Of a DNA stretch of 64,000 nt, positions 29,934 to 51,262 are shown one piece after another. This DNA comes from a phage. How positions within the stretch are numbered: the first letter of the stretch is position 1; each line of letters starts with the position of its first letter. The notes under the pieces were generated by a model. It was not told the origin of the DNA. It was given only the letters and a program-made list of their open reading frames with translations, and made no database searches. Position numbers and translations under genes: made by a program. The stretch lies in the sequence record OZ413489.1; one strand, 5' to 3'.

Positions 29934-30271
29934 GTTTGTGGAGAAATATCGTTAACTACGTGTGCGGCAATCCAACTCCTGAAGAGAAGGATGTTGTGAT
30001 TCACGATTTTACTAAAAGATCTCGTGAAAAAGATCTACTGCTAACAAAGGTGACTGATAAAGATCCTGCAGTAGGGGACTGGGCAGGTTTTGCGTTTACA
30101 TCGGACAAATACACCTTTAACAAAGGTGACTACCTTGTTGTGGATTTTAACGAAGACATTGAGGGTGCTGAACCTTACTATCAAACCCTTATTGTTGCAG
30201 GGTGTGTTGATCTCTCTGCAGGCATGCACAGTTTGATTCTTTTTGAGCTTGACTCTGAAGACCTTGAGTAG
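29930..30271 (+). CDS. Hypothetical protein
   Basis: 113 aa; ATGA overlap with the helicase stop. Confidence 0.45.
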   Translation: MSLWRNIVNYVCGNPTPEEKDVVIHDFTKRSREKDLLLTKVTDKDPAVGDWAGFAFTSDKYTFNKGDYLVVDFNEDIEGAEPYYQTLIVAGCVDLSAGMHSLILFELDSEDLE

Positions 30272-30331
30272 TAAGATGTGAGTATAAAGGGGAGGCACTC
30301 CTCCCCACAAAAACTAAGGAAGCACTAAACG

Positions 30332-30634
30332 ATGAAACGTTATAAACCATACACTTTTGAAATCGATTTCGAACTTGACGATATGTTTACTGTGGAAGCT
30401 CAGGCAGTAGTTCAGTTGCCAGATCCGGAGTGCCGGGATTCTGATGTTGACTGTTACGGATTTAGACAAATCACCGATGTGCATGTTTACCACAACGGTG
30501 AAGAGGTGGACTTCCACCAACTGCCAAACGATATGCGCCACTCAATTTACAAACGTGCAGCCCGTGAACTAGAGTCCTATCTGGATGCAGCGACGACAGC
30601 AGCTGCATTTGCTGAAGAAGTGGGAGGTTTCTGA
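30332..30634 (+). CDS. Hypothetical protein
   Basis: 100 aa; RBS aaggaag. Confidence 0.45.
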   Translation: MKRYKPYTFEIDFELDDMFTVEAQAVVQLPDPECRDSDVDCYGFRQITDVHVYHNGEEVDFHQLPNDMRHSIYKRAARELESYLDAATTAAAFAEEVGGF

Positions 30635-31029
30635 TGATTACAGGTGTGAAGATTATCCAATACCACTTAACCAAATTGGAAGATGCTGAAAAAGAGCTTG
30701 CAGAAGTTCTGAATAGTGGATATACTTTACTATCATGCGCCTGCTCAGACACATACGCTGTGTGGACACTTATCCGGAAGGAAGAGCCTGCGTGGATCTT
30801 GGTGCCAAACCCTAAGATCATTAGTGAGGTGGATGACTACGCTCAGGACGGCCTGCCAGAAGGCTGGGAAGTATGGGAAGGTGGTGAAAACCCTGCACCA
30901 GGTAAGTGGGTAAAATACAAACTACGTAGCGGTGCACAGTACGCTGACTACTCTGATGACCTGGACTGGAGTCATTCTTCACCAGGATCATCTGCAAGTT
31001 CATATGATATCGTAGCTTTTCAGGAATAA
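30634..31029 (+). CDS. Hypothetical protein
   Basis: 131 aa; coupled start. Confidence 0.45.
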   Translation: MITGVKIIQYHLTKLEDAEKELAEVLNSGYTLLSCACSDTYAVWTLIRKEEPAWILVPNPKIISEVDDYAQDGLPEGWEVWEGGENPAPGKWVKYKLRSGAQYADYSDDLDWSHSSPGSSASSYDIVAFQE

Positions 31030-31041
31030 GGAGAAGAAGGT

Positions 31042-31524
31042 ATGTCAGATTTTATGTGGAAAGTAGGTTACGCAACCCCTGAAATGTGTGAGGCTTGCTT
31101 TGTTAAAATAGGCCGCGAGGATATCGACAAAGTGATCCTTAAGTTTCGTGATGTGGCTGTAATCGGCAACCGAGTGCTTAAGCACTTAAAGAATCTGAAG
31201 CTCACCAAAAAGAAGTTCTTTGGACTTTTCGAAGAGAAGGTTGATGCTTGGACCCATTGCATTCAGGAAGCTAAATCTCACTACAGTGCCATCGTTACTC
31301 CAGAACGGGTAGCAAAGATGGAAGGATTCATCAACAGCACAGAATTTGAGTGCCTAAAGGCTGCCCTTGATAGCTATCCAAAGTGCCTCAAACACCTTGA
31401 CAAGTATGCAGAAAAGGATGGTGAAATGTATCTCACCCTGGACGCATATTATGAGATGCAAGAAATTTTAAATTTAGATTTGACATTGGTATCCACCGAG
31501 TATACAATAGGTATCCGGGTTTAA
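31042..31524 (+). CDS. Hypothetical protein
   Basis: 160 aa; RBS aaggagaag; terminator follows. Confidence 0.5.
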   Translation: MSDFMWKVGYATPEMCEACFVKIGREDIDKVILKFRDVAVIGNRVLKHLKNLKLTKKKFFGLFEEKVDAWTHCIQEAKSHYSAIVTPERVAKMEGFINSTEFECLKAALDSYPKCLKHLDKYAEKDGEMYLTLDAYYEMQEILNLDLTLVSTEYTIGIRV

Positions 31525-31530
31525 CACTAG

Positions 31531-31557
31531 GCCCTGCCCGAAAGGGTGGGGCTTTTT
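31531..31557 (+). terminator. Rho-independent terminator (repeated hairpin, copy 1)
   Basis: gccctgcccgaaagggtggggc + ttttt; the same hairpin recurs at 42528. Confidence 0.65.
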
Positions 31558-32340
31558 GCATTAGGAGACAGCAAATTGAAATTTATCTACAAAGAACACT
31601 ACCACAAAGGTGTTGTGTGGAGTCTATTTGACGGGTCTGGTGGTGCAGTCATTGACTGGGCAAAAGCTGGGTACCTGTGCCTGTGCTTTAATGCAGAAGG
31701 TGCTGATCACGGCAGTTATGCAGAGGTTATAACCGATCATCCCAACATTCACTATGTGGATTATTGGATTGACCCATGGTTCCCTCAGGAAACTTTTTGC
31801 ATGTACCCAGCTCCAGACTTTATTCTTGCATTTCCTCCGTGCACGCATTTAGCGGTATCAGGTGCTGCACATTTTAAGAAAAAGCTGGCTAAGGACCCCA
31901 TGATCCAAATTAATGCTGTAAAGGATGCTCGGGTTGCGGAAGAGCTGGGAGAGATTTACGATTGCCCGTGGCATGTAGAGAATCCTGTGGGTGTTATGTC
32001 CACACTGTGGCGTAAACCTGATTACCGTTTTCATCCTTCTGACTATGGTGGGTATTTACCGGAGGATGATGTAAACCCTTGGTTTCCTGAATTTATAGCT
32101 CCACGTGATGCCTATCCAAAAATAACTTGCGGCTGGATAGGTAATGGATTTATAATCCCGCCCACAAAACCTGTCCCGCAAATAGTTGACGCGGTTAGCG
32201 GGTATTCCATGCAACACGCCAAGCTGGGTGGAAAGAGTGCAAGAACGAAGATGATTCGAAGCCTCACACCACGTGGCTGGGCAAAAGCCGTATTCTTAGC
32301 AAACGAGCCTGTAGTAAGGAGCAGAATTAATGGGAAGTAA
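31546..32340 (+). CDS. DNA (cytosine-5)-methyltransferase
   Basis: About 260 aa; motif I LFDGSGG, motif IV FPPC (catalytic PC), motif VI HVENPVG (ENV). Track start at 31546 lies in the terminator hairpin; a TTG at 31576 after RBS aggaga is the more likely start. Confidence 0.7.
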   Translation: MGLFALGDSKLKFIYKEHYHKGVVWSLFDGSGGAVIDWAKAGYLCLCFNAEGADHGSYAEVITDHPNIHYVDYWIDPWFPQETFCMYPAPDFILAFPPCTHLAVSGAAHFKKKLAKDPMIQINAVKDARVAEELGEIYDCPWHVENPVGVMSTLWRKPDYRFHPSDYGGYLPEDDVNPWFPEFIAPRDAYPKITCGWIGNGFIIPPTKPVPQIVDAVSGYSMQHAKLGGKSARTKMIRSLTPRGWAKAVFLANEPVVRSRINGK

Positions 32341-34408
32341 ATTTATGGCATCTGCATACAACCGTTTCGGTGAGCCAAACCCGAAAGCAACTAAGTATAA
32401 AAGTGGGGGAAGTGTGAAACGAGACTATCGTGATGAAAAAGAGATTGAAACTGTAGAGACTGTTTTAGAAAATACTAAAATCGTCCCTGTCCCACAACAA
32501 AATATCGGTCTGATGGCTGCACAATATTTTGGTGTGCGATCAGCATTGTCCCAAGAAGACGGTGTGACAGTTACTGCAACATATTTCCCATATTACGACC
32601 GCTACGGGAATCTGTCCGGTTTCAAAAAGCGTGACTGGACGATTCCTAAAGAGCAAAGGGGCCATTTCTCCGTTGTTGGCATAGTAAAGGCCAACTCCCA
32701 GATGTTTGGTCAAAAGCTGTGTGCATCTTCCAACAACCGTAAGCAGATTAACGTTTGTGAGGGGGAAGGTGATGTTATTGCAGCATGGCAGGCTGCATAT
32801 CAGATACAAGTAAAAGGGATTCTCACCAACGCTAAAGCCCCGGCAAAGGTGAAGCAGTGGGCTAAAGAAGTCCAGGACGGGATCGATGCAGTTATCAACG
32901 GTGGTGATCTGGCAGGAAAACCATGCCTGCCTTTTGTTGGAATTAACTGTGGATGTGCAAACGCAGTAGATACTTTTGCAAACAATGAGAAGTTTATCCG
33001 TAGCTATGGAACAGTTGTGCTGGCAATGGATAACGATGCAGCTAACGAGGTAGAGAAGCAAAAACACGTCATTAAAGGTGTTGAGGCCACGCACAATATC
33101 GCAGCATTTTTGATGGCTGATAACGTTTACCACGTAGAATACCCTGGTGAAGTAAACGACCCTGACGGTGTAAAAGATATCCGAGACATGCTGAAGGCTA
33201 AAAAGCTGGAAGATATTGTCAACATGTTCCGGCATCCTGTTAAATATGTGCCTGATGCGGTGTCGGATTTAGAAGACTTCTCTATCGAGTCTTTGCGGAA
33301 AAAGACTTCCAACGGGGTAGATATCAGCGCAGAGTTCCCAAAACTGCAAAAAATGCTAAAAGGCTTGCACAAAGGGACACTCGTAATGCTTACAGGTCCA
33401 TCAGGTGGCGGTAAAACAACCGTAGCTAAAAAACTGGAACACTGTATTGCAAGATACCTAATGGACCCGACATGCCCGAAGGCTGATGACTATGAAGAGG
33501 ATGATCGTCTATGTATGATCCATCTTGAGGAGGACCCAGAGGAAGCAATTAACTCCTTGTATGCAAACCAGTTAGGGTTTGATGTTAAAGAGTTTGTTGA
33601 AGATCCTAGCCAGTTTTTAACTGATCAAGAACACGCAGAGATTCACCAATCATGGGCAAAAGCTGGAAAAATCAAAGTGTTCAAACATTTCGGGTCTATT
33701 CCGGTGGATGAGTTGATTACCAAGCTTAAGCAAATGGTTTGCCTGTACCATTGCCGTTATATTGTGCTGGATCACCTGTCCATGGTAATTTCAGGGCTTA
33801 ATGTTAAGGATGAGCGAAAAGAACTGGACATGGCTATGACTCAGCTGGCTGCGTTTTGTAAGCAGTTTAACGTGTTTATCTTGGTGATCGCTCACCTCAA
33901 ACGTACAGAGATTGTGCCTCCTAAGGACAAGGATGGTAACCCGTTACCTTTCTGGTATCCTGTGCGAAAAGAGAATTTGCGAGGATCGGCGGGGCTTGAA
34001 CAGTTGAGTTGGGTAGTCATAGGTGTCGAGGCCGAAGAAATGGTGGATCGTTCTCGTGGACGTGTCCGTCTGGTAGGTCTTAAAAACCGTCCAGCAAAAA
34101 CTCTAGGTATTGCTGACACTTTGGTTATGGACCCGCACACAGGTAAGTTCCATGATGCCAGTAATTGGTACTGGGACAAAGAAATGCAGATGTTTACAGA
34201 CGGAGAAGGTGGGGAGGTTGTTTGGAGACCTCAGGCCATGTTTGAGGACCAAGAGCATGCAGTTGTAGAAACACCTATGGGCAAGGTTGTAGCCGATAAG
34301 GTTGTAACTCCTACTATTAAGCCTGTTGACACGCAGGAAGACCTCCAGTACGATGATCCATCCTCTGATCCGGTCCCCGGTTTTGAGGATGATGAAACAC
34401 CTTTTTAA
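32330..34408 (+). CDS. Primase-helicase (TOPRIM + DnaB-like)
   Basis: 692 aa; TOPRIM-like VLAMDNDAANE; Walker A LTGPSGGGKTT; Walker B-like VLDHLS in the C-terminal half. Confidence 0.8.
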   Translation: MGSKFMASAYNRFGEPNPKATKYKSGGSVKRDYRDEKEIETVETVLENTKIVPVPQQNIGLMAAQYFGVRSALSQEDGVTVTATYFPYYDRYGNLSGFKKRDWTIPKEQRGHFSVVGIVKANSQMFGQKLCASSNNRKQINVCEGEGDVIAAWQAAYQIQVKGILTNAKAPAKVKQWAKEVQDGIDAVINGGDLAGKPCLPFVGINCGCANAVDTFANNEKFIRSYGTVVLAMDNDAANEVEKQKHVIKGVEATHNIAAFLMADNVYHVEYPGEVNDPDGVKDIRDMLKAKKLEDIVNMFRHPVKYVPDAVSDLEDFSIESLRKKTSNGVDISAEFPKLQKMLKGLHKGTLVMLTGPSGGGKTTVAKKLEHCIARYLMDPTCPKADDYEEDDRLCMIHLEEDPEEAINSLYANQLGFDVKEFVEDPSQFLTDQEHAEIHQSWAKAGKIKVFKHFGSIPVDELITKLKQMVCLYHCRYIVLDHLSMVISGLNVKDERKELDMAMTQLAAFCKQFNVFILVIAHLKRTEIVPPKDKDGNPLPFWYPVRKENLRGSAGLEQLSWVVIGVEAEEMVDRSRGRVRLVGLKNRPAKTLGIADTLVMDPHTGKFHDASNWYWDKEMQMFTDGEGGEVVWRPQAMFEDQEHAVVETPMGKVVADKVVTPTIKPVDTQEDLQYDDPSSDPVPGFEDDETPF

Positions 34409-34466: not shown

Positions 34467-36896
34467 ATGAGCATGTGGTCGTTCGACTTTGAGTCATCCG
34501 GTTTGCTGGAAGACCCAGATCTTTATTATCACTGCGGCCTGTTTAAAGAGCTGAATAAGAACCGTTTTATGCTGTTCCTTCCTCTAAATGACCGCACACA
34601 CTACTCCGAGGAGGATATAGAAAAGGCTAAGAACTTCATTCTGGCAAAGAAAACTCTTTATAAAGATTTTGAAGTTCGCATAGCAGATTTTTCAGAGTTG
34701 GAAGGTTGGCTTACAGGAAATTCTGACTGGTCACCAACAGCTTTGAACTGCCATAACTGCTACAGTTATGACTTTATGCTGATGGAAAGATTATCTGGTA
34801 TTCATTTTGATATGTTCCGTGATCCTAAATGTATGGGGACTATCAACGATCACCAGGTTAACCTGTTTGATACGTTGGCGATGAGCCGAATCTTGTGGCC
34901 TGATCGCCCTTTACCAAAAGGTTGTCCGGACTCTGTATTCAACCCGGTTACTAAGAAAATGCAGCCTGTTGGTCCTCACGGCCTTATGGCATGGGGCTAC
35001 GCCCTTGGTAACCAGAAAGTTCAAATTGATGACTGGCGCGATCTTCCGTTGTGGAAGTATGTGGATCGTGTATTCGAGGACGTTATCATCCAGGAGCTGC
35101 TCTGGAAAGAGCTGGTAGCGGAATCAAAAGGTGTATTCTACGGCAAATCTGACATGCAGAACTTTATGTACGATCCGGCCAAAGAGAAGCCGAAAGGGTT
35201 CAAGAAGATCACCTGGAAGAACGCATTACGTCGAGGCATGCTGCAGCACTTCCTGATGGAGCTGCAGGCCCGTCAGGGTGTATACTTCGACATAGATGGA
35301 GCTATTGCTTTACGTGACCGTTGCGATGCGTGGATGAAAGAAATCGCTGATCGTGTTGAACCACAACTACCTTTAAAAGAGCTGTCAATGTCTCAGCGGC
35401 CCAAGTTCCCTGAAAAGCCGTTTAACCAAGACGGGACAATCTCTAATAATGGTTGGAAATGGTTAAAAGATAAGCTTGGCTATCCTGTAGACATGAGTGC
35501 TTTAGAGTTCAAAGCCCTGCCTAAGCGAGCATTTACCTCTACAGGAGATGTCAGCAAGATGGGGATAAAATGGTGTGAAGAGATGGGCTGCAAAGACCCC
35601 GATAAGATGGCTGATTTCTTGAGAGGCTATATTAAGGGCACCTCCACACCACAACCCTTACCTAAAGAGCTGATGGATCAGGCAATAAGTGATCTGCAGC
35701 AGAAGCGAATGCCTGACTGCAAGATACCTATGAAAATCAGCAATCAGGACGACATCAAGCGATACCTAATCAGTGCTGGTTGGCTCCCAACAATGTGGAG
35801 AACTAAAGATGTAACTAAAGACAGCAAGAAGAAAGCTTTACCTGATGCAGATGTTGATGCACGAGTATATGCATATATGGACGAGCTTTTGGAGTCAGAG
35901 TATTGTGACCTAATTATCAACTTCTGGAACAAAACTGATGCTAAGTTCCAGACAACCGTGCACAAGTTCCGAAGCTTTCCTAACTCCGAAAGGATTAAAA
36001 AGGAAGTATTCGGGAAAATACGTAGAAAAGCCAGGGCACTTATTACTTCTCCGCAACTGAAAGATACGTTTGGACACCTATGCCCAAATCTTGAAAAATT
36101 GAACGGAGAGATGGCTAAAGATATCGTCTTGTGGTTATCATTGCGAAACCGCAGATCGGTCCTTGATCCAATCAAGGAGGATAAGGTTGATACTGGTCTT
36201 CTTAATCACCCACGTTTGAAGATTGACCATAAGCTTCCTGCTAAAAGCTCTGGATTAACAAACACTTCCAGACAGAAACACAGTATTTGTGCAAACATGC
36301 CTAAACCATCTCCTAAAGTAGTTATGGGTAAAGAGATGCGTAGTCTGTGGGGTGTTCCTCCAGGATACTTTGAGATCGGTATTGACGGGTCCAACTTAGA
36401 GCAGCTCATCGGGGCTTGGGGTGCCTTTGAGTTCGACAACGGCTTGTATTATGATGTTGTAAGTAACGGAGACGCACACCAAAACAATGCTGAGGCATAT
36501 ACAAAAGTGGCAGGCAGAGAGGTGTCCCGTAACGACGGTAAACCTATCACGTATGGGGTTATGTACGGGGCACAAAAAGATAAAGTTGCAGATATGCTGG
36601 ACATCTCCCCAGAGTTGGGACAAAGGGTAATCGATGCACTCTGGGATGCCAACCCAGGTCTTAAGGGGCGCAAAGAGGATCTGGAGAAATTCTGGGAAGC
36701 AACAGGTAAGAAGTTTATCTACTCTTTTGATGGTCATGCTATCTGGACCCGATCTAAACACTCTTTACTTAATGCATACCAACAAAATGGCGGTGCATCG
36801 TTGTGTGACTTAGTTGGAATACTCATGCACCACCAGATGGTGAAGCGTGGGTGGTACGATGAAGGTGTTCGTCGTATTATTTATTACCATAAATAA
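34467..36896 (+). CDS. Family A DNA polymerase
   Basis: 809 aa; RBS aaggagaac; exonuclease-like segment (LFDTLAMSR); palm motifs DGSNLEQL (motif A-like) and KPITYGVMYG (motif B-like). Confidence 0.8.
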   Translation: MSMWSFDFESSGLLEDPDLYYHCGLFKELNKNRFMLFLPLNDRTHYSEEDIEKAKNFILAKKTLYKDFEVRIADFSELEGWLTGNSDWSPTALNCHNCYSYDFMLMERLSGIHFDMFRDPKCMGTINDHQVNLFDTLAMSRILWPDRPLPKGCPDSVFNPVTKKMQPVGPHGLMAWGYALGNQKVQIDDWRDLPLWKYVDRVFEDVIIQELLWKELVAESKGVFYGKSDMQNFMYDPAKEKPKGFKKITWKNALRRGMLQHFLMELQARQGVYFDIDGAIALRDRCDAWMKEIADRVEPQLPLKELSMSQRPKFPEKPFNQDGTISNNGWKWLKDKLGYPVDMSALEFKALPKRAFTSTGDVSKMGIKWCEEMGCKDPDKMADFLRGYIKGTSTPQPLPKELMDQAISDLQQKRMPDCKIPMKISNQDDIKRYLISAGWLPTMWRTKDVTKDSKKKALPDADVDARVYAYMDELLESEYCDLIINFWNKTDAKFQTTVHKFRSFPNSERIKKEVFGKIRRKARALITSPQLKDTFGHLCPNLEKLNGEMAKDIVLWLSLRNRRSVLDPIKEDKVDTGLLNHPRLKIDHKLPAKSSGLTNTSRQKHSICANMPKPSPKVVMGKEMRSLWGVPPGYFEIGIDGSNLEQLIGAWGAFEFDNGLYYDVVSNGDAHQNNAEAYTKVAGREVSRNDGKPITYGVMYGAQKDKVADMLDISPELGQRVIDALWDANPGLKGRKEDLEKFWEATGKKFIYSFDGHAIWTRSKHSLLNAYQQNGGASLCDLVGILMHHQMVKRGWYDEGVRRIIYYHK

Positions 36897-37163
36897 CATT
36901 GTGGCTTCATAGAGTAATCTATGTCGAATAACCTCTTTAACTGCGGGAAGCCTAAACCTTATGGCAAGGTAATCCGCAACGAAGCGCTCAAAAGAGCGAA
37001 CGCTCAGAGGCCATTCCGAAAGGAAGTAGACCAGCAAGTGCGGTCGAAATGGGAGGATTCCTGTGGTTGCTTATCATAGGAATATGAGATGGTCCGATCC
37101 TACGTGAAAACGTATGGCTATGCACGTAATGGTGCGGGGTAGCTTAACGACCTACCTGAACTA

Positions 37164-37520
37164 TTGGATGAGTACCAACTTCAAGTGCCTGACACACCGA
37201 AGTATAAGACTGTGTACACCTTCGACACAATTGAAGAACTGGAAGCATTTAAGGCAGAGCAGGAAGCCAAACTTCATGTGTTCGACGGTCATAAGTACAA
37301 AAAGGCACGCAAGGATGAGGACGGAAACGAAGTGGTTGACAGAGACGGAAACACGGTGTACGATCCTATCCTGAACGATGACGGAAAGCTTGAACTTATC
37401 TGGAGCCCTGTGGGTGAAATGGTGGTACATTGCTTCTGGCAAGCTTCTAAAATGATGGGAGTCCCGTTCCAGATCACAGGTGAATACTTGTGTGGTCGTA
37501 ATTGGGGTGATTGTCACTAA
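37164..37520 (+). CDS. Hypothetical acidic protein
   Basis: 118 aa; TTG start in the track with a weak RBS, start uncertain; preferred over the overlapping 37114-37374 frame on composition. Confidence 0.4.
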   Translation: MDEYQLQVPDTPKYKTVYTFDTIEELEAFKAEQEAKLHVFDGHKYKKARKDEDGNEVVDRDGNTVYDPILNDDGKLELIWSPVGEMVVHCFWQASKMMGVPFQITGEYLCGRNWGDCH

Positions 37521-42512: not shown

Positions 42513-42527
42513 CACATAACTAACATA

Positions 42528-42556
42528 GCCCTGCCCGAAAGGGTGGGGCATTTTTG
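42528..42556 (+). terminator. Rho-independent terminator (repeated hairpin, copy 2)
   Basis: gccctgcccgaaagggtggggc + atttttgtat; same hairpin as at 31531. Confidence 0.65.
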
Positions 42557-43773: not shown

Positions 43774-44221
43774 TACTGTAAAGGGAGATTTAATCTCCCT
43801 TTTTAAGAGCGGTGCTGGTCACCTGATCCACGGTTGTAACTGCTTCCACACAATGGGTAAAGGTATAGCAAAACAGATTGCCCGTGAGTTCCCTCAAGCA
43901 TTGGCAGCCGACAAAGAGACGAGACACGGTTGCCTAAGTAAACTGGGTGCGTTCTCCCGATGGGAGCACTTATCTCCGATAGGTATTGTCTACGGAATCA
44001 ATCTGTATACTCAGTTCTACCCAGGGCCTAATGCTGAATATTTCTCAATCCTGAAAGGCTTTGAGCTAGTCAATGAGGTATTCAAGGGATCGACTTTACC
44101 ATTCTACATCCCTAAGATCGGGTGCGGCATAGGCGGTTTGAAGTGGGAGCACGTAGAGGACGTTATTAACCTCGCCACTTTTGATATAGATATTATCGTG
44201 GTGGAGTACAAAGAGTGTTGA
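43763..44221 (+). CDS. Macro-domain (ADP-ribose-binding/processing) protein
   Basis: 152 aa; GTG start overlapping the upstream gene; macro signatures HGCNCFHTMGKGIA and IPKIGCGIGGL. Confidence 0.65.
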   Translation: MIIDTVKGDLISLFKSGAGHLIHGCNCFHTMGKGIAKQIAREFPQALAADKETRHGCLSKLGAFSRWEHLSPIGIVYGINLYTQFYPGPNAEYFSILKGFELVNEVFKGSTLPFYIPKIGCGIGGLKWEHVEDVINLATFDIDIIVVEYKEC

Positions 44222-44246
44222 CAGCTGGCTTTTGAGATGGTATAGT
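44218..44246 (+). promoter_or_regulatory. sigma70-type promoter
   Basis: TTGACA-17 bp-TATAGT overlapping the macro gene stop. Confidence 0.5.
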
Positions 44247-44274
44247 CACCACAACGATTGAGAGAGGGAGCACT

Positions 44275-44475
44275 ATGGAGACTAAAATCTTAATTCTGGC
44301 TGTGATAGATACGACCGAAGGGGCCGTGTTCGAATCTGCAGGAGGGTATTTCTACCTGCCCTACGGAAAAAGAACTTCCGAACCGAGTAAAGATTCAATC
44401 CTTAAAGTGTTCCCTTGTGCTTTCTGGCTGGAGATTCTGGTAGAAGATTGCAGAGGATTGGGGAGAGAATTATGA
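44275..44475 (+). CDS. Hypothetical small protein
   Basis: 66 aa; RBS gagggag. Confidence 0.45.
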   Translation: METKILILAVIDTTEGAVFESAGGYFYLPYGKRTSEPSKDSILKVFPCAFWLEILVEDCRGLGREL

Positions 44476-44666
44476 GAAACAAGAAAGAGCTTTACTCTGG
44501 CGAGTGGATCAACGATCAACAGGTCGGAGAGGTAACCTGCTTCCGATGTTTTACCAGGTACAATCTTAAAACTGCACCAAAAAGTGTTCCAAAGACTGAT
44601 GGTTATTATATAAAAGAACCTCATTGCCCAAAATGTAAATGCCGATTGTACTGGAGCAATCTGTAA
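44472..44666 (+). CDS. Small zinc-ribbon protein
   Basis: Track ORF from 44415; ATG at 44472 with RBS ggggagag and ATGA coupling; CxxC...CxxC (CFRC, CPKC). Confidence 0.45.
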   Translation: MRNKKELYSGEWINDQQVGEVTCFRCFTRYNLKTAPKSVPKTDGYYIKEPHCPKCKCRLYWSNL

Positions 44667-44670
44667 GAGG

Positions 44671-44698
44671 TTGACATCTGAAAACTGCAGTGTATAAT
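44671..44698 (+). promoter_or_regulatory. sigma70-type promoter (extended -10)
   Basis: TTGACA-16 bp-TGtTATAAT. Confidence 0.55.
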
Positions 44699-44729
44699 AT
44701 ACGCATAAACTAACAGAGAGCGATGTATT

Positions 44730-44921
44730 ATGGTAATTTTTAACCGGGATGGTATCATAGTTAGACAGCACCCGTTCCTTGAATACTATCAAATTGAGCA
44801 ATGGTGCTACGGGGATTGCAGTCACTCCTATGGGCAAAGTTGGGGATACCGTACAGTTTTTGAATCCACAGACCTTGACAAAGTAAGACAGAAAGTTTTA
44901 GAACTTATTAACAACAAGTGA
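44730..44921 (+). CDS. Hypothetical small protein
   Basis: 63 aa ORF downstream of the promoter. Confidence 0.4.
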   Translation: MVIFNRDGIIVRQHPFLEYYQIEQWCYGDCSHSYGQSWGYRTVFESTDLDKVRQKVLELINNK

Positions 44922-44928
44922 GTATGAT

Positions 44929-45261
44929 ATGGTAACATTAGAAAGACGTAAAGCTATTGCCGCCACACTGGCAGACATCTTTTGGGATTGTAATTTAAAA
45001 TCTACCCGAAATTGTGGCGCATCTGTAGATGTATTATTCCCACGGCCTACTATTGTTGCAATGGGCAACCTTCTTGATGTGGTATATGGAGCATGGGACA
45101 AGGAAGGTGGATTCTATATCTGGCAACCTGACTACGGGACTTGGAAAGAGGTTAGTGGTTCTACGGACTTCACTCCTGCAGTGGCTAAAATGGATGGCTG
45201 GAAAATCTATGTCGGTAACGACATGGAACTGAAAGGCGAAATTGTTTACTGGTTACCTTAA
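44929..45261 (+). CDS. Hypothetical protein
   Basis: 110 aa. Confidence 0.45.
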   Translation: MVTLERRKAIAATLADIFWDCNLKSTRNCGASVDVLFPRPTIVAMGNLLDVVYGAWDKEGGFYIWQPDYGTWKEVSGSTDFTPAVAKMDGWKIYVGNDMELKGEIVYWLP

Positions 45262-45282
45262 GAGAATGCAGGAGATAAAGTT

Positions 45283-45528
45283 ATGAACAAAGGGTGGACA
45301 TTTGTAGACGGCGTTAAAAACATGCCTCTAGGAAAGTATATTGTAGCCATGGCTGATGAGGATGGCAATGTGGATTTCGGAGCTTGCGAGGTTGTTCTTG
45401 CAGGATCTGGTAACTATGTGGACAAAACCGGGATAATTAACGGTCAGTTCTACTTTGATCACAACCCTGTTGTAGCGTATATGGCTATGCCAGAGTTTAA
45501 GTTCCCAAAGGATGGTGCTGATGTTTAA
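45283..45528 (+). CDS. Hypothetical protein
   Basis: 81 aa; RBS caggagat. Confidence 0.45.
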   Translation: MNKGWTFVDGVKNMPLGKYIVAMADEDGNVDFGACEVVLAGSGNYVDKTGIINGQFYFDHNPVVAYMAMPEFKFPKDGADV

Positions 45529-45718
45529 GCTTAAATCCGCATGGAGCATTGCTGTGGGTGATGAGATCCGTATCCCCGGTGGGAAGACCATTATGAAGAT
45601 ATCTCGTATTGAGTACGAAGGTGACCGTGTATTCCACATCTTCGCAGAAGATGGTCGAGAAATTTATATACAGGCAGGTTCTCACATTTATATCCGTAAG
45701 AAAGGGGACGACAAATGA
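45512..45718 (+). CDS. Hypothetical small protein
   Basis: 68 aa; overlaps neighbours at both ends. Confidence 0.4.
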   Translation: MVLMFKLKSAWSIAVGDEIRIPGGKTIMKISRIEYEGDRVFHIFAEDGREIYIQAGSHIYIRKKGDDK

Positions 45719-46044
45719 CAGAAATCATCATTTCAACTGCAGGGTATGTGTTCCTGACAATCATTGCACTGACTATTTTGGTGACAGTGTATGGGTTTGT
45801 TATCCTTCCTATCCTTGAGACATTTAGTTTGTGTCGGTGTTGGAGAAAAGCTTACGGTCCACAACCATGGAAGGACTGGCCCCACCTGGTGCGCTTAGCG
45901 TTCTCTTATGCTTACGATCACTCCAGTAGTGCATGCATAACCGGATACCACGCCCACAACTGGAGCTGGGAAGGGTTGAGGAAATGGAATGTTACAAAGA
46001 CCATACCTCTGCGCATGTACAAACCTAAAAACAAAGACAACTGA
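45715..46044 (+). CDS. Membrane protein
   Basis: 109 aa; N-terminal hydrophobic helix (GYVFLTIIALTILVTVYGFVILPIL). Confidence 0.5.
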   Translation: MTEIIISTAGYVFLTIIALTILVTVYGFVILPILETFSLCRCWRKAYGPQPWKDWPHLVRLAFSYAYDHSSSACITGYHAHNWSWEGLRKWNVTKTIPLRMYKPKNKDN

Positions 46045-46079
46045 TACTTGAAAATTCTTGGCATATCAAGTATAAGGGG

Positions 46080-46560
46080 GATTTCTAAAATGGATTTCCT
46101 CCTTTTGATATTTCACCGGGCCGGATATTTTAAAATTCTTAGAAAATCAGAAAATGGATCGAAAACTAAAATGGATTTTTCAGAGTAGGCGCGACAAGCT
46201 GAATAACTCATCCTATCGTTTGCACCATATTCCAGGCCACCATTATAGATTTCCCACACATGCTAACCTCCCTCTACTAGAACTTCCTCCACTTACCCTT
46301 GACCTTCTATGGTAACAATCTAACCGCTATCTTGAAGTTGCTGTGCAGCTTTCCAGGTACTCGATCTACTTTTCATTTCAGGGCTTGGATTTTCTGAAAA
46401 TTTTTCTCGATAAATTTCTCAGTACTCGATCTGTTTTTCGTTTTCTGAATCGGATTTTCTGGAAATCGTTCCGGCTCTCGACCTGAAATTTTTGGGGACG
46501 AAATCGATTTTTCGTTTTCAGAAATGGATTTTTAAAATTTCTATATGGGAATATTTTATG
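46080..46560. repeat. Iteron-rich AT-rich non-coding region (candidate origin / protein-binding array)
   Basis: Repeated words: aaaatggat(t/c) x4, gtactcgatct x2, ggattttctg(a/g)aaat x2, tttcgttttc x2; no convincing ORF. Confidence 0.5.
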
Positions 46561-46646
46561 GGATACTGTTTTATAGGAAATTGTTACGGAGGGTAATTAG
46601 CGTGCTAATTAAATTTATTAAATGCGAGGAGTTCTCATTTAGAATT

Positions 46647-46665
46647 TTGAATGATAATCATTCTC
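46647..46665. promoter_or_regulatory. Fur-box-like operator, copy A
   Basis: ttgAATGATAATCATTcTC: 15/19 to the Fur consensus GATAATGATAATCATTATC (15/16 over the core). Confidence 0.5.
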
Positions 46666-46677
46666 GTTTGCAGAATA

Positions 46678-46722
46678 ACGGGCAGGCCCGGTGATTGTCT
46701 CCCGGCCCCTACTGCCCCGGCT
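46678..46722 (+). other. Conserved hairpin element, copy A (core ggcaggcccggtgattgtctccc)
   Basis: GGGCAG-GCCCGG-loop-CCGGCCC-CTGCCC hairpin followed by ttgttatt; the 23-nt core recurs at 46822 and, inverted, at 54121. Confidence 0.4.
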
Positions 46723-46782
46723 TGTTATTATAGTATCACACAGGACAAAGAAAGCAAGGATTTTTTGCATAAATTTTTAAAT

Positions 46783-46801
46783 GATAATGATAACCGTTCT
46801 C
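46783..46801. promoter_or_regulatory. Fur-box-like operator, copy B
   Basis: GATAATGATAAcCgTTcTC: 16/19 to the Fur consensus; TTGCAT lies 16 bp upstream. Confidence 0.5.
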
Positions 46802-46807
46802 ATTTTA

Positions 46808-46858
46808 TGCAGCGCCCATCCCCGGTGGTTGTCTCCCCCGTCACCGGTGCCTGCCGTC
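46808..46858 (+). other. Conserved hairpin element, copy B (core ccggtggttgtctccc)
   Basis: CCGGTG...CACCGG stem around the loop gttgtctccccc; same core motif as copy A. Confidence 0.4.
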
Positions 46859-47060
46859 CTTTCGATAGGTATATCGTGCCACCTGGCGGGGCCGCTGTCA
46901 ACACTTTTCAAAAAATTTTTCTAACCTGATGCGCTAACCGCTGCAACCTGGCGGGGTCAGCCTGGCAGGACCTAACTGACCGGGTAGGAGAGAATGAAGG
47001 CTTGTAAACCTGGTGGGCCTATGCTACAGGATAGGTAACAATTGAAGAGGAGGTACAAAA

Positions 47061-47228
47061 ATGAAAGGTAATATGATCCCCCTAGAAAATGTAGCTATTA
47101 ATGACGCTGAGGCTATCGCCCTGGTTGAAAAGGCTATGGCGGGAGCGTTGGAACATAAAGAAGAGTACGAAAAATGGTGGTTAACCTGGCGGGGGCGGCA
47201 GGTGGATTCTATCATAAAAATAATTTAA
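47061..47228 (+). CDS. Small hypothetical protein (55 aa)
   Basis: Strong RBS gaagaggaggt, 7 nt before the ATG; not in the >=60 aa track. Confidence 0.45.
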   Translation: MKGNMIPLENVAINDAEAIALVEKAMAGALEHKEEYEKWWLTWRGRQVDSIIKII

Positions 47229-47235
47229 AATAGTC

Positions 47236-47265
47236 GTTGACAACAAGGTTAATCATGGTATTATT
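47236..47265 (+). promoter_or_regulatory. sigma70-type promoter
   Basis: TTGACA-17 bp-ATTATT (or TATTAT at an 18-bp spacer). Confidence 0.5.
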
Positions 47266-47314
47266 ACCCTACAAGGTGAACAACACCGCACTAACCAGTA
47301 AAGAGGATAAATTT

Positions 47315-47512
47315 ATGAACGCATACGGGATCAAAGTACGTCGCAACACTCGCCAGGTGGTCACCAATCAAGTGATTTGCCGGGTGGATGTAACCATCAA
47401 CAACGGGCAAGGCCTTTATAAATTTCGTCGCGGTCATAGCTATACCCTGCAACAGCTTAATCGTTGCGCCCTGACAAAAGGTCAGATCAACCATTGGTTT
47501 AATAAAAAATAA
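47315..47512 (+). CDS. Hypothetical small basic protein
   Basis: Track ORF 47237-47512 begins inside the promoter; ATG at 47315 with RBS aaagaggat. Confidence 0.45.
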   Translation: MNAYGIKVRRNTRQVVTNQVICRVDVTINNGQGLYKFRRGHSYTLQQLNRCALTKGQINHWFNKK

Positions 47513-47515
47513 GTA

Positions 47516-47544
47516 TTGACATACAGTCCGACACCAAATACACT
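47516..47544 (+). promoter_or_regulatory. sigma70-type promoter
   Basis: TTGACA-17 bp-TACACT. Confidence 0.5.
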
Positions 47545-47576
47545 AAAAGCACAAAAGACACTAAGAGGATAAAATC

Positions 47577-47975
47577 ATGAAAACCACTACCTTTAATTTT
47601 GATAATGCAGACTTTTCTTTTTCTGATGTCAAGAACTGCCGCCGTGATCGTGGATTTTACAAGGCTTATAATCTGGTGGGCCTGGACGATGACAATAATT
47701 TGCACGAAGTAGCTGAGATCCGGTATTATGCCGCCGCCAGCGGTAACACTAACTACTGCGTTTTTTGGATACACGACAACAAGAACAATAAGTACGGTTA
47801 TACTGGTGGCAAGGCTAGCGGTCACGGTTATGATAAAGCCAACGCTGCACTTGAAAGCGCATTAAATGCCATGGGAATCACTGCCGACGGCTGGATCTAT
47901 GAAGAAGAGTTTTTGGCGGCACTTGCTGCCCACCTGGGCTATAAAAAGCACATTGTAACATGCGCCCACGAATAA
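47577..47975 (+). CDS. Hypothetical protein
   Basis: 132 aa; RBS taagaggat. Confidence 0.5.
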   Translation: MKTTTFNFDNADFSFSDVKNCRRDRGFYKAYNLVGLDDDNNLHEVAEIRYYAAASGNTNYCVFWIHDNKNNKYGYTGGKASGHGYDKANAALESALNAMGITADGWIYEEEFLAALAAHLGYKKHIVTCAHE

Positions 47976-47986
47976 AAAAAAAATTA

Positions 47987-48014
47987 TTGACACGCTGCAA
48001 AATTCAAGTAAACT
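47987..48014 (+). promoter_or_regulatory. sigma70-type promoter
   Basis: TTGACA-16 bp-TAAACT, followed by a 5'-UTR hairpin. Confidence 0.5.
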
Positions 48015-48024
48015 AGGCACAAAA

Positions 48025-48043
48025 GGCGGGAATGTTTCCCGCC
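48025..48043 (+). promoter_or_regulatory. 5'-UTR stem-loop
   Basis: ggcggg-aatgttt-cccgcc between the promoter and the RBS of 48063. Confidence 0.45.
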
Positions 48044-48062
48044 AACACGAAGGAAAAAGATC

Positions 48063-48458
48063 ATGAATAAAAACGTACGCCGCATCATGAACGAACTGGC
48101 AAACGATGAAAAAATTATTGATATGCATTTGGTCAACATTTGCCGCCGTTGTGTAACATATAACAACCGCGCCGCAAAAGCGCGTGAGATGAACGCAAAA
48201 GGCACCTTAAAGCCCTTTCAGGTGGTTGTAAAATCTATGACCAGTGCAGCAGGCCAGGCGCATGACCACAACAACGGGAGCACTAATATTGATCCATCTT
48301 ACGTAATGAAACGGATCCGGACTTGCAAGAATAAAGAGCAGGTGTATAACGTCATAGATTGGCTGGACTCCCTGGGTGACGTGGTTTACAATAGGTTTTC
48401 TGCAGCTATTGAAATTCAGTTAGACAGGTTGGACGGGAAAGTACTGAAAACTTACTGA
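48063..48458 (+). CDS. Hypothetical protein
   Basis: 131 aa; RBS aaggaaaaag. Confidence 0.5.
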   Translation: MNKNVRRIMNELANDEKIIDMHLVNICRRCVTYNNRAAKAREMNAKGTLKPFQVVVKSMTSAAGQAHDHNNGSTNIDPSYVMKRIRTCKNKEQVYNVIDWLDSLGDVVYNRFSAAIEIQLDRLDGKVLKTY

Positions 48459-48460
48459 GT

Positions 48461-48506
48461 TTATTTTTAGATGGCCTTGACTCCAGGGCCATCAATAAAG
48501 TAAACT
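48461..48506 (+). promoter_or_regulatory. Repeated 46-bp promoter/palindrome element, copy 1
   Basis: ttatttttaGATGGCCttgactccaGGGCCATCaataaagtaaact: a TTGACT -35 inside an inverted repeat, TAAACT at -10 spacing; near-identical copies at 49089 and 52803. Confidence 0.5.
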
Positions 48507-48538
48507 AATCCCAGTTAAGCGAAAAAGGAGGCTTGAAG

Positions 48539-48658
48539 ATGAGCACTACACGCCAGCACACAAAGGTAACTATTATCGTTTGCATCATTGGTTATATCCT
48601 GGCGCAAATGTTGATGGGTAGCGCTAACGGTGTCGCAAAATTTTTCTTAAACTTTTAA
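48539..48658 (+). CDS. Small hydrophobic peptide (39 aa)
   Basis: RBS aaaggagg, 8 nt before the ATG; one predicted TM helix (TIIVCIIGYILAQMLMG). Confidence 0.45.
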   Translation: MSTTRQHTKVTIIVCIIGYILAQMLMGSANGVAKFFLNF

Positions 48659-48686
48659 TTGACAAGCTAACTTAGATCAGTATACT
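48659..48686 (+). promoter_or_regulatory. sigma70-type promoter
   Basis: TTGACA-16 bp-TATACT. Confidence 0.55.
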
Positions 48687-48698
48687 AAACACATAAAC

Positions 48699-48711
48699 GG
48701 GAAAACTTCCC
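48699..48711 (+). promoter_or_regulatory. 5'-UTR stem-loop
   Basis: ggg-aaaactt-ccc between the promoter and RBS aaaggagaaaac. Confidence 0.4.
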
Positions 48712-48735
48712 AGAACACCAAAAGGAGAAAACATT

Positions 48736-49086
48736 ATGAATACTTCCATCACTATGACCGCCGAAGAAAAAGCCCTGCAGATCGCCGCTCTGAAAAAACA
48801 GATTGCAGAACTTGAAGACAAGATCGACAATTTTGAAATCGACGAAGACAAATACGACGATAAATATGATGAATGGTTGGACGAGATCTACGGCGAAATT
48901 ATGATCGGAAACATTTCTTTTCTTCCGTCGCGTATCCTCAAGGAGCTAGATCCTATCGCTTACCGCTGCGGATTTAGCGACTACATCGACAGCCTGGATA
49001 TTGAGGACGATGAAGAATACCAGGAATTGCAGACAGAGCTTGAAGAAGTGAAAGAAGAGCTTGCAGAACTGGAAGAAAACGAGTAA
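48736..49086 (+). CDS. Hypothetical acidic coiled-coil protein
   Basis: 116 aa; heptad-like N and C termini; very acidic. Confidence 0.5.
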   Translation: MNTSITMTAEEKALQIAALKKQIAELEDKIDNFEIDEDKYDDKYDEWLDEIYGEIMIGNISFLPSRILKELDPIAYRCGFSDYIDSLDIEDDEEYQELQTELEEVKEELAELEENE

Positions 49087-49088
49087 GA

Positions 49089-49134
49089 TTATTTTTAGAT
49101 GGCCTTGACTCCAGGGCCATCAATAAAGTAAACT
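49089..49134 (+). promoter_or_regulatory. Repeated 46-bp promoter/palindrome element, copy 2
   Basis: Identical core to copy 1, directly after the stop at 49086. Confidence 0.5.
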
Positions 49135-49175
49135 TTATACTGTTAACACTGAACTAATGCATAGGAGTTAAAACC

Positions 49176-49421
49176 ATGGCAGCACTAATCACCAAATATT
49201 ATGCCCCTACCAACACCAAAAGCGCCCGTATCATGGTAAAAGGCTTCGGACGTAAAAAGGTTTACACTTGGGATTATTCCCTAGACATGGAAGACAACTA
49301 CACCAACGCGATGACCGATTTTATTAATGAACTAAATAAGCAGATCTTAACCAATTATAAGGTGACCGACATCGCCTATGTTGGGGAAGGTGGGATCTGT
49401 TTTGTCGGTATTGTCAAATAA
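49176..49421 (+). CDS. Hypothetical protein
   Basis: 81 aa; RBS ataggagtt. Confidence 0.5.
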   Translation: MAALITKYYAPTNTKSARIMVKGFGRKKVYTWDYSLDMEDNYTNAMTDFINELNKQILTNYKVTDIAYVGEGGICFVGIVK

Positions 49422-49496
49422 GCTGTTTTTTCGGTGGTCCTGGTGGCAGGGCCATCTATAAAGATAGTTTATTAACACCATGAAAGGAGAAAGTAC

Positions 49497-49850
49497 ATGA
49501 TCAGCGGGGCTAGTTTTATTATTGGCGCTATTGCTACAGCTTTAATTGTAAACAAGATCCAGGATAAAAAGGAAAGAGGAAGTACCGCCCTTGCAGAATA
49601 TCCATTTTGGACATTCAACGATAACGAAGATTATATTATAAAGTATAAAAATAAAGAAGGTGACCAAGTAACACCGCGACCGATCCCGGCTTACAAGATG
49701 CAGGAAACACTATACCGCTTGGAGGCAGGGGGCGCAAAAATTGTGGACTTTTGGGGATACGATCACACAGATCAGGAAGTTATAAAGCGCCGTATCCGGG
49801 CTATTCAGGCCAATATTGAAGTTAGCAAGGGGGGAATATATGAAGATTAA
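49497..49850 (+). CDS. Hypothetical protein with N-terminal hydrophobic segment
   Basis: 117 aa; RBS aaaggagaaag; N-terminal TM-like helix. Confidence 0.5.
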   Translation: MISGASFIIGAIATALIVNKIQDKKERGSTALAEYPFWTFNDNEDYIIKYKNKEGDQVTPRPIPAYKMQETLYRLEAGGAKIVDFWGYDHTDQEVIKRRIRAIQANIEVSKGGIYED

Positions 49851-50037
49851 TTTTGAGAAAATTGTAAAGCGATCTCATGATTCCGAAGAGCTGCCGGAAC
49901 GCCGCCAGCGTAACAATAAACTGAATAAGCCAAAAAGATTTGGGAAGATCTGGCGGAATCATTATGATCGTAAATTGCCGGGCCTCCTTTTGGAACGTGA
50001 ACGGCAGGCGGAACGATACCGCCACAAAGGCAACTAA
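49840..50037 (+). CDS. Hypothetical small basic protein
   Basis: Track ORF from 49816; ATG at 49840 after RBS aagggggg. Confidence 0.4.
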   Translation: MKINFEKIVKRSHDSEELPERRQRNNKLNKPKRFGKIWRNHYDRKLPGLLLERERQAERYRHKGN

Positions 50038-50044
50038 CAACCAA

Positions 50045-50073
50045 CGCCCCGCCATCGTGCGGGGCTTTTTATT
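50045..50073 (+). terminator. Rho-independent terminator
   Basis: gccccgc-catcgt-gcggggc + tttttattt. Confidence 0.75.
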
Positions 50074-50195
50074 TCTACCCTACGAATAGCGCCCCTGGTT
50101 GGCCCCACAACGCCCTAAAAGCCCCCTACCCATGCAATCCCATTTCTTAACCTGAAAACATCGTCAAAGGCTGTTTTAAAGCGTTAAAAATATTG

Positions 50196-50223
50196 TTGAC
50201 ATCTAAAATATTCTAGATATACT
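50196..50223 (+). promoter_or_regulatory. sigma70-type promoter
   Basis: TTGACA-16 bp-TATACT. Confidence 0.55.
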
Positions 50224-50258
50224 AATCACATCAAAGCGAGAAGTAAGGAGTAAACGCC

Positions 50259-50519
50259 ATGCGTAAATTAAAAAATTTTGATAAAGTTGATATTGTCCTG
50301 AATAATTTTTACTACTGCAATAACAAGGCCGTTTGGTGGCGTGATAGTTCCACCGATAAAGTCAAGGCGCGCTTTCTCCAGGGGCACTGGCAAGGCCGCC
50401 CAGTGATTAAAATCATGGGGCAATTGGTAGCGTTTAAAAATTGCCGCCGTGTTGATGACGTTGAAGAGATTTTAAACATTTTGCGCCACAATAATTTAAA
50501 AAATAGTGTTGACAAGTAA
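50259..50519 (+). CDS. Hypothetical protein
   Basis: 86 aa; RBS taaggagtaaac. Confidence 0.5.
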   Translation: MRKLKNFDKVDIVLNNFYYCNNKAVWWRDSSTDKVKARFLQGHWQGRPVIKIMGQLVAFKNCRRVDDVEEILNILRHNNLKNSVDK

Positions 50520-50536
50520 ATCTCAATAAGTATAAT
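50509..50536 (+). promoter_or_regulatory. sigma70-type promoter
   Basis: TTGACA-16 bp-TATAAT overlapping the stop of 50259-50519. Confidence 0.6.
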
Positions 50537-50546
50537 TAAAAACACA

Positions 50547-50565
50547 GGCGGGAAAACTTCCCGCC
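50547..50565 (+). promoter_or_regulatory. 5'-UTR stem-loop
   Basis: ggcggg-aaaactt-cccgcc, then RBS acaggagaaaat. Confidence 0.45.
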
Positions 50566-50593
50566 ACTAACAAAGAAAACAGGAGAAAATATC

Positions 50594-51217
50594 ATGACCA
50601 CCGTTAACATTACCACAGGTTACAATTTATCTTTCGACGTGCTGACCGACGAACAAAAAGAAAAAGCCGTGGAAATGGTCCGCGAAAGAGAAGAACACAG
50701 CGGGGATAACTTTTTTGCAGAAAGTGTAATTGAGTACTATAAAGAATATGTTTTTCCAGAGTACGGCCTTGAAGATACCGATGTACATTGGTCAGGCTTT
50801 TGGTGCCAGGGTGACGGCGCGTCAATCAGTGCGGAAAACGTGGATTTAGAAAAATTCTTGCGTAAAGTCAAGTCTCTGACTAAATTCCGCTCAATTCGTC
50901 ACTTGTTCGGCACAATGCACGATGGCGAGTTATCCGCAAGTGTTGAGCGTGATCCATATAGCCGCTATAGTCACGAAAACACTGTAAACGGATACATCGA
51001 TACTACATGGCTAGACCTGACCACCAAACAAGAAAACAAAGTGGAAGATCTGGAAGAGCTGATCACCGAGACGGTACGGGAGTTATCCCGCAAGGTTTAC
51101 GTAGACCTGGAGGAGGCCTATCTTGAACAATTCACCGCCGAAAACTTGATCGGCCTTATCGAGGCCAATGATTGGCGGTTTGATGTCGATGAACACGGTA
51201 AGATGACTTTTTCATAA
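50594..51217 (+). CDS. Hypothetical protein
   Basis: 207 aa. Confidence 0.55.
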   Translation: MTTVNITTGYNLSFDVLTDEQKEKAVEMVREREEHSGDNFFAESVIEYYKEYVFPEYGLEDTDVHWSGFWCQGDGASISAENVDLEKFLRKVKSLTKFRSIRHLFGTMHDGELSASVERDPYSRYSHENTVNGYIDTTWLDLTTKQENKVEDLEELITETVRELSRKVYVDLEEAYLEQFTAENLIGLIEANDWRFDVDEHGKMTFS

Positions 51218-51225
51218 ATAAAGTG

Positions 51226-51253: not shown

Positions 51254-51262
51254 AAAACTCAA

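Follow-up and report, generated by a model that had tools for sequence, protein, structure and literature searches.

Positions 31531 to 32340 of the phage sequence record OZ413489.1 raise the question of what a short reading frame with motifs of a cytosine-C5 DNA methyltransferase encodes, where its coding sequence begins, and which site its product would methylate. The frame was examined within the whole stretch of DNA that was analysed, 64,000 nucleotides in length and referred to here as the window. The original prediction had described an orphan anti-restriction methylase with a start inside a terminator hairpin and a possible Dcm-like target. From our analysis, the gene very probably encodes a minimal stand-alone S-adenosylmethionine (SAM)-dependent DNA cytosine-C5 methyltransferase, expressed with the replication genes and likely forming 5-methylcytosine (5mC) at CCWGG. 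It is an ordinary gene, annotated already, and its methyltransferase family is very common in phages. The gene and the features described with it lie on the plus strand.

The source of the DNA and the gene model were considered together. Positions 31000-33000 shared 99.0-99.4% identity with the Escherichia phages JeffSchatz (Bas55), DrSchubert and nomine, all Vequintavirus myophages of ~136 kb, and the 361 bases spanning the start of the methyltransferase gene matched nomine at 100% identity; judged by sequence, the window phage is a Vequintavirus (an rV5-like E. coli myophage). In these records the gene carries labels such as "Dcm-like C5 cytosine methyltransferase", "putative site specific DNA methylase" and "DNA methyltransferase", and it was present in all 116 of 116 full-length Vequintavirus matches. 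The mechanical open reading frame (ORF) runs from a GTG at 31546 to 32340 (264 amino acids). The coding sequence as we read it occupies 31576..32340, with a TTG start and a TAA stop (765 bp, 254 amino acids), the same coordinates as in the GenBank records JeffSchatz bas55_0073 and EdH4_00055. This TTG lies in frame, 30 bases 3' of GTG 31546, and is preceded at a distance of 8 nucleotides by a putative Shine-Dalgarno sequence, AGGAG (31563..31567), so that TTG 31576 is the best candidate start, as had been suspected.

The start inside the hairpin did not survive this comparison. Position 31531 is a first stem base of the hairpin and not a start codon, the coding sequence begins after the hairpin, and no public annotation among the near-identical phage records begins the coding sequence within it. 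In two metagenomic relatives (L005 and L006, protein ~80% identical), the hairpin is kept and is followed by GGAGGG and then by an ATG, and the interval between hairpin and start differs by a 22-nucleotide indel; because of these indels we read the interval as not coding. Two other starts were considered and rejected. GTG 31546 sits in the 3' arm of the hairpin without a Shine-Dalgarno sequence, in a region not conserved as coding in the relatives, and GTG 31615 has a poor Shine-Dalgarno sequence and would drop residues ahead of the first strand. The appearance of a start in the hairpin thus arose because the ORF had been extended to GTG 31546, and gene callers that make this extension err, the true start most likely being TTG 31576.

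Counting residues from this TTG, three motifs of the C5-methyltransferases were recognized, and their conservation was assessed in two alignments, one of 50 close homologues and one of 32 sequences down to 33% identity. Motif I, the SAM-binding glycine loop, reads LFDGSGG (residues 17-23, nucleotides 31624..31644); close homologues conserve it, profile searches align it with the motif I of DNMT3B and M.HaeIII, and among distant members of the family it decays to D-x-[ST]-G. Motif IV, FPPCT (residues 86-90, nucleotides 31831..31845), aligns with the PC of DNMT3B, M.HaeIII and E. coli Dcm, and its catalytic nucleophile, Cys89, is invariant in both alignments. Motif VI (residues 135-138, nucleotides 31978..31989) was also found as predicted, except that it reads ENPV and not ENV; its E135-N136-P137 is invariant in both alignments, and its position, where strand 132-136 of the AlphaFold2 model ends, fits. 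Invariance of four further residues (G20, S21, P87 and P88) is limited to the close homologues.

The AlphaFold2 model, built on the family alignment, had a predicted local distance difference test score (pLDDT) of 88 and a predicted TM-score of 0.89, and matched the C5-methyltransferase fold. Past the ENP strand it contains one strand, a conserved loop (161-183), a strand (184-189), a partly variable loop (190-215) and the C-terminal helices. No separate target-recognition domain is present in the model. The sole candidate for target recognition is the set of conserved loops round strand 184-189 (residues 161-215, nucleotides 32056..32220; pLDDT 77-98), ~55 confidently modelled residues that may serve to recognize DNA and that are of about the size of the DNMT3 recognition loop; the variable loop within them (residues 195-215) is of a 'GYSxQH' type. 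The C-terminal helices carry the family signature KLGGKSxxTKxIRSLTPRG, which is family-specific and is encoded at 32221..32295 (KLGGKSARTKMIRSLTPRGWAKAVF) at the place of motifs IX and X, the equivalence with motif X being suggested by position in the fold. Close homologues show no variation at G218, G219, T224, K225, I227, R228, S229, P232 and R233, and '[IL]RSxTP' was found in most family members.

Family membership was clear from the match to PHROG 757, 'DNA methyltransferase' (E 4.3e-87, residues 10-261 of the 264-residue ORF). The window protein belongs to the same family as the PHROG 757 methyltransferases of KarlJaspers/K42 (Dcm, bas06_0055), TLS (dcm), AAS23 (gp52) and JeffSchatz (bas55_0073), sharing with them the length class (~225-260 residues), the invariant Cys, ENP and Lys, the C-terminal IRSLTPRG, and occurrence as an orphan in lytic phages. 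Identity is 99-100% with the proteins of nomine and JeffSchatz, and 52-54% over the whole length with those of KarlJaspers (K42-like) and AAS23, from which the window protein differs in a 10-residue N-terminal extension, the TTG start, and a 'GYSxQH' loop with a 4-residue insertion. Gene model, motifs, fold and family membership were established in this analysis.

The family is large. A word-indexed search returned 3,567 homologues, nearly all of 225-260 residues, and a profile scan of 1.84 billion cluster representatives gave 2,102 members at E <= 0.001, mostly short, a few of them with N-terminal extensions. Among the best 150 of these 2,102 profile matches almost all were of the short form, and no bridge to the canonical long C5-methyltransferases was found. 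By tblastn the gene was present in 1,505 of 50,697 phage records (~3% of sequenced phages), including Drexlerviridae (TLS "dcm", JakobBernoulli, KarlJaspers, AAS23), Dhillonvirus, Phapecoctavirus, and other Escherichia, Klebsiella and Salmonella phages. The homologue loci that were inspected place the gene in a setting of replication or early genes, and an endonuclease adjoins it in none of them. Likewise, neither the annotated neighbours nor library scans of the surrounding genes in the window gave an endonuclease gene near the methyltransferase, and the reading as an orphan short C5-cytosine methyltransferase is upheld by motifs, fold and experimentally studied homologues. One homologue of 563 residues (P0270) joins the short C5-methylase module, matched over residues 3-178, to a complete D12-class N6-adenine methyltransferase (PF02086, residues 303-546), and we counted this fusion to an adenine DNA methylase in favour of a DNA methyltransferase.

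Compared with the catalytic domains of DNMT3A and DNMT3B, the de novo C5-methyltransferases of eukaryotes, the window protein is 12-15% identical (profile E ~0.5) and lacks regulatory domains, and the likeness is one of fold and not of family membership; when PDB sequences were searched with phmmer and with profiles, the alignments covered motifs I-IV only and were not significant (E ~0.5-1). Compared with E. coli Dcm and M.EcoRII (472 residues), it is about half the size, with the same chemistry and possibly the same site, and both would be solitary methylases against EcoRII-type enzymes, a role that is putative for the window protein. Only motif IV aligns with Dcm, the recognition region is unrelated in sequence, and no Vsr is annotated adjoining the phage gene.

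Two homologues have been studied experimentally. The 711-bp "Dcm" of phage K42 (KarlJaspers strain) triggers retron Ec86, and escape mutants disrupt K42 dcm; its expression raises the 5mC content of the retron's multicopy single-stranded DNA (msDNA) as measured by mass spectrometry coupled to liquid chromatography (LC-MS), a C82A/E128A/K175A/K176A mutant is inert, and the enzyme itself is described as toxic (10.1101/2023.08.16.553469). KarlJaspers bas06_0055 (711 bp, 236 residues) has C82, E128, K175 and K176 at exactly the positions mutated in K42, and aligns with the window protein over 235 residues at 54% identity (E 1e-87). Cys89 of the window protein corresponds to C82 of K42 and Glu135 to E128, and Ile183 stands where K42 has Lys176. 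The second homologue, gp52 of Pantoea phage AAS23, is 52% identical, and AAS23 virion DNA was reported as "Dcm methylated" from restriction digests including EcoRII (PMC8004638). With these results, DNA C5-methylation by the PHROG 757 family is well supported. Residues 161-194 are highly conserved between the window protein and the K42 and AAS23 proteins. From the two homologues, CCWGG specificity for the subtype found in the window is plausible.

The composition of the window bears on this specificity. CCWGG words had been described as frequent, which we did not confirm: the 112 CCWGG sites in the window compare with 112 +/- 10 in dinucleotide shuffles, and their number is 0.75 of the maximal-order Markov expectation (z -3.1), the lowest of the 32 interrupted pentamer palindromes. 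Enrichment was therefore ruled out. The two motifs quoted in support of it, ACCTGGCGGGG (3 copies, 46881-47194) and CCAGGACCTGG (2 copies including the complement, 53870 and 53997), are present in only these few copies and account for only seven CCWGG sites, all within the early-gene stretch at 44-56 kb. Outside 44-56 kb the Markov ratio was 0.58 (66 observed vs 114 expected, z -4.5), and inside it was 1.22. Because CCWGG is the most under-represented of these words, the pattern suggests, as circumstantial evidence, that restriction or methylation aimed at CCWGG has been of consequence for the phage, the avoidance being mild and its analysis partly post hoc. A footprint of 5mC deamination was sought and rejected, CTWGG/CCWAG being at expectation (1.01). 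TCWGG/CCWGA was mildly high (1.22), at least partly as a Markov coupling artefact, and was given no weight. Thus a Dcm-like specificity, as originally proposed, is plausible from the two homologues and does not follow from the frequency of CCWGG, which is not enriched and if anything avoided.

The early-gene block itself (44000-56000), made up of small ORFs with strong sigma70-like promoters, contained 46 of the 112 CCWGG sites (41%), a density of 3.8 per kb compared with 1.3 per kb in the rest of the window (Poisson p ~2e-6) despite a slightly lower GC content. A ~60-bp intergenic repeat within it, at 48460-48518 and 49083-49146, has the promoter-like form TTGACT-CCAGGGCCATCAATAAAG-TAAACT with a CCAGG in the spacer.

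Several observations weigh against a CCWGG-specific methylase with a protective role. The window protein had no Pfam or NCBIfam match and no match to PF00145 even at E <= 1; in favour of a methyltransferase, however, 30 of the 50 close homologues touched PF00145 at that threshold, and three homologues (P0054, P0069 and P0071) passed its gathering score (22 bits) at 24.7-28.5 bits over profile positions 4-94 only, which span motifs I-IV. Motifs VIII (QxRxR), IX and X (GN[SA]V) were not recognizable, as no sequence alignment extended beyond motif IV or VI; the positional candidates are only W145-R146 and the C-terminal IRSLTPRG helix. Aligned with E. coli K-12 Dcm, the family profile matched in only 25 columns round motif IV (hhalign probability 0.35%). 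Because this is next to nothing, mapping of motifs VIII-X or of a recognition region by sequence was dropped, and because no similarity to Dcm was found beyond motif IV, "Dcm-like" is a label and not a statement of homology in the recognition region. In both tested homologues, K42 and AAS23, the variable loop is of an 'NPGW' type seen in 30 of the 120 closest homologues, and the window protein has the 'GYSxQH' loop with its 4-residue insertion (82 of the 120). Because of this difference in the variable loop, we infer CCWGG specificity and do not read it directly from the tested enzymes. In the retron study, CCTGG was deduced from msDNA mutants, the methylated base was not mapped, and dcm+ MG1655 without the phage gene showed little msDNA 5mC (10.1101/2023.08.16.553469); the methylated site was likewise not mapped in the AAS23 study (PMC8004638). 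No direct Vequintavirus methylome data or mapped specificity for this methylase family was found in the literature. Full protection of CCWGG by the enzyme would make avoidance of the site unnecessary. Finally, the BASEL study described Vequintavirinae as "exceptionally susceptible" to the restriction-modification (RM) systems that it tested (PMC8594841).

The main alternative is an active C5-methyltransferase with a target other than CCWGG, whether a shorter, different or relaxed sequence or a preference for hairpin or single-stranded DNA; we consider it unlikely, but serious enough to be kept in view. The missing similarity to Dcm outside motif IV, the very small recognition region and a variable-loop subtype unlike that of K42 and AAS23 would all fit such an enzyme, as would the msDNA 5mC that came from the phage enzyme and not from host Dcm, the description of the phage enzyme as toxic, and the fact that the closest structural neighbours of the window protein, DNMT3A and DNMT3B, read only a dinucleotide. 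It is opposed by the high conservation of residues 161-194 with the K42 and AAS23 proteins and by the genomic avoidance of CCWGG, which points to that site. In addition, methylation of the RmC type would bring little gain, as McrBC would cut it.

A distinctly less probable variant is that the 'GYSxQH' subtype has a non-CCWGG target, or that methylation times the early region (44-56 kb), in which case the enzyme would serve in regulation or in a counter-defence of narrow range, and not as a general anti-restriction methylase.

A catalytically dead enzyme, or a relic of a non-DNA methyltransferase (for example a Dnmt2-like enzyme acting on tRNA) carried in the replication operon, appears very improbable. 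The absence of a Pfam match and the weak TTG start would be consistent with such a relic, but neither the catalytic Cys nor the ENP varies in a large family that is under clear purifying selection, and the gene was retained in 116/116 of the full-length Vequintavirus matches. The homologues act on DNA, and DNA C5-methyltransferases outscored Dnmt2 in the structure matches.

Slimmer still is the chance that a non-methyl group is transferred, such as carboxymethyl from carboxy-S-adenosylmethionine (Cx-SAM) to give a modified cytosine as in phage CmoX (a DNA cytosine C5-carboxymethyltransferase, PDB 8yf3): CmoX is among the fold matches and picks Cx-SAM via an Arg in place of the motif-X Asn of M.HhaI, the family has a nearly invariant Arg228 in its motif-X-like 'IRSLTP', and E. 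coli makes Cx-SAM, but DNMT3 enzymes carry Arg-Ser at the same position as Arg228 yet use SAM, LC-MS gave 5mC for the K42 enzyme, which is 54% identical, the motif shared by the family, FPPC, departs from the SPPC that defines CmoX, no cmoA, cmoY or amide-ligase gene is annotated nearby although CmoX genes typically adjoin CmoA and ligase homologues, and Vequintavirinae are highly RM-sensitive.

The preferred reading is thus a DNA C5-methyltransferase that would act at CCWGG, and for the window protein itself we infer activity, target sequence and protective role. Because the motifs and fold are conserved, the canonical C5-methyltransferase mechanism would be expected: Cys89 of the PPC would attack C6 of a flipped-out cytosine, Glu135 of the ENP would protonate N3, and the methyl group would be transferred to C5. 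The ~55 residues of conserved loops (161-215) may stand in for a separate target-recognition domain, as in compact DNMT3. The likely product is 5mC on replicating phage DNA, most probably at CCWGG, which would make progeny resistant to EcoRII-type enzymes and unseen by McrBC. As McrBC needs RmC, a phage of E. coli can afford CmCWGG. Orphan methylases of phages are conventionally read as anti-restriction enzymes, which fits the position in the replication module, and as a standard inference for such genes the original proposal is retained. A broad role is not, given the RM susceptibility of Vequintavirinae noted above (PMC8594841), and any protection would be narrow.

Expression was examined from the sequence upstream. 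A terminator-like hairpin does exist as reported: a GC-rich stem with a GAAA loop (31529-31554) followed by TTTTT (to 31558), beginning a few bases past the stop of the upstream gene (31042-31524), for which it resembles a terminator and is so labelled in the record of phage EdH4. The 66-nucleotide stretch that contains it (31515-31580) folds at -22.8 kcal/mol, and in the two metagenomic relatives one G-U pair of the stem has become G-C through a T-to-C change in the 3' arm. Ahead of the hairpin, within the 3' end of the upstream gene, lies a putative sigma70-like promoter (31480..31508, TTGACA-17 nt-TACAAT), with 11 of 12 matches the best of the region; in the same relatives its -35 hexamer is invariant and its -10 is kept as TACAAT or TATGAT, with a spacer that varies. 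The hairpin forms part of the 5' leader of any transcript from this promoter. Our promoter scan of the region found no comparable promoter between the hairpin and the genes for primase/helicase and DNA polymerase; because these downstream genes are essential, RNA polymerase must pass the hairpin routinely. The hairpin is therefore probably a leaky terminator or a leader stem-loop and not a block, and the gene would be transcribed through it from upstream genes, from the promoter at 31480, or from both. The proposed dependence on read-through accordingly stands for transcription past the hairpin and falls for translation. A TTG start is expected to lower initiation, and to that extent the original suggestion of low translation is reasonable.

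Similar arrangements were observed elsewhere in the window. The hairpin, GGCCCTGCCCGAAAGGGTGGGGC, occurs a second time (2 mismatches) at 42527-42554, where it is followed by a T-run, AGGAG and the start codon ATG 42576. The order of promoter and leader hairpin seen at 31480-31580 recurs at four other early promoters (47987-48060, 48659-48730, 50509-50580 and 54169-54240), each a cassette of a consensus-like promoter, ~10-35 nucleotides, a GC-rich hairpin (e.g. GGCGGGAAAACTTCCCGCC), a ribosome-binding site and an ATG.

The neighbours of the gene in the window include rIIA/B, a PIF1/Dda helicase, small ORFs of no assigned function, a primase/helicase and a DNA polymerase. The primase/helicase gene (32330..34408) begins at ATG 32330, overlapping the methyltransferase stop by 11 nucleotides in what appears to be a co-transcribed replication module, and is followed by the polymerase gene. 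A group I intron was observed inside the latter at 36881-37116 on the plus strand (Rfam RF00028, 64.7 bits, E 4e-14), matching a 276-bp insertion (~36891-37166) relative to JeffSchatz; it splits the polymerase into an ORF at 34467-36896 (809 amino acids) and another at 37164-37520, where JeffSchatz has a single ORF of 925 amino acids. In JeffSchatz (bas55_0069) and EdH4, a ~1.33-kb N6-adenine methyltransferase gene sits between ORFs of 113 and 100 amino acids. The window lacks this gene at 30271-30332, so that methylase content differs among otherwise ~97% identical phages.

Mobile elements were also seen in one of the two metagenomic relatives (L006, ~80% identity, Logan ERR11458096), in which the PIF1-type helicase (1-2539) contains an intein with Intein_splicing and LAGLIDADG matches, and two small homing-endonuclease-like genes (DUF723; T5orf172/MUG113) lie between the methylase and primase/helicase genes (4747-5264). 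Sixteen records within MG065636-MG065690, labelled 'Campylobacter phage' with host C. jejuni, were 96-99% identical to the Vequintavirus region, and further records under the same label match T1-like phages. Given the identity of MG065636-MG065690 to E. coli Vequintavirus, these host labels look doubtful.

As a discovery the gene carries little weight, being annotated in about a hundred near-identical phage genomes. The name "Dcm-like" has no basis in the Dcm recognition region, and the target of a widespread minimal family has never been directly mapped in the literature found. If the enzyme were a regulator, the layout of promoter, hairpin and TTG start would hold its level low. For homologues a cost is documented, namely sensing by retron Ec86 (10.1101/2023.08.16.553469), and phages that carry the gene may likewise be sensed by methylation-sensing defences of this kind, which bears on the choice of therapeutic phages.

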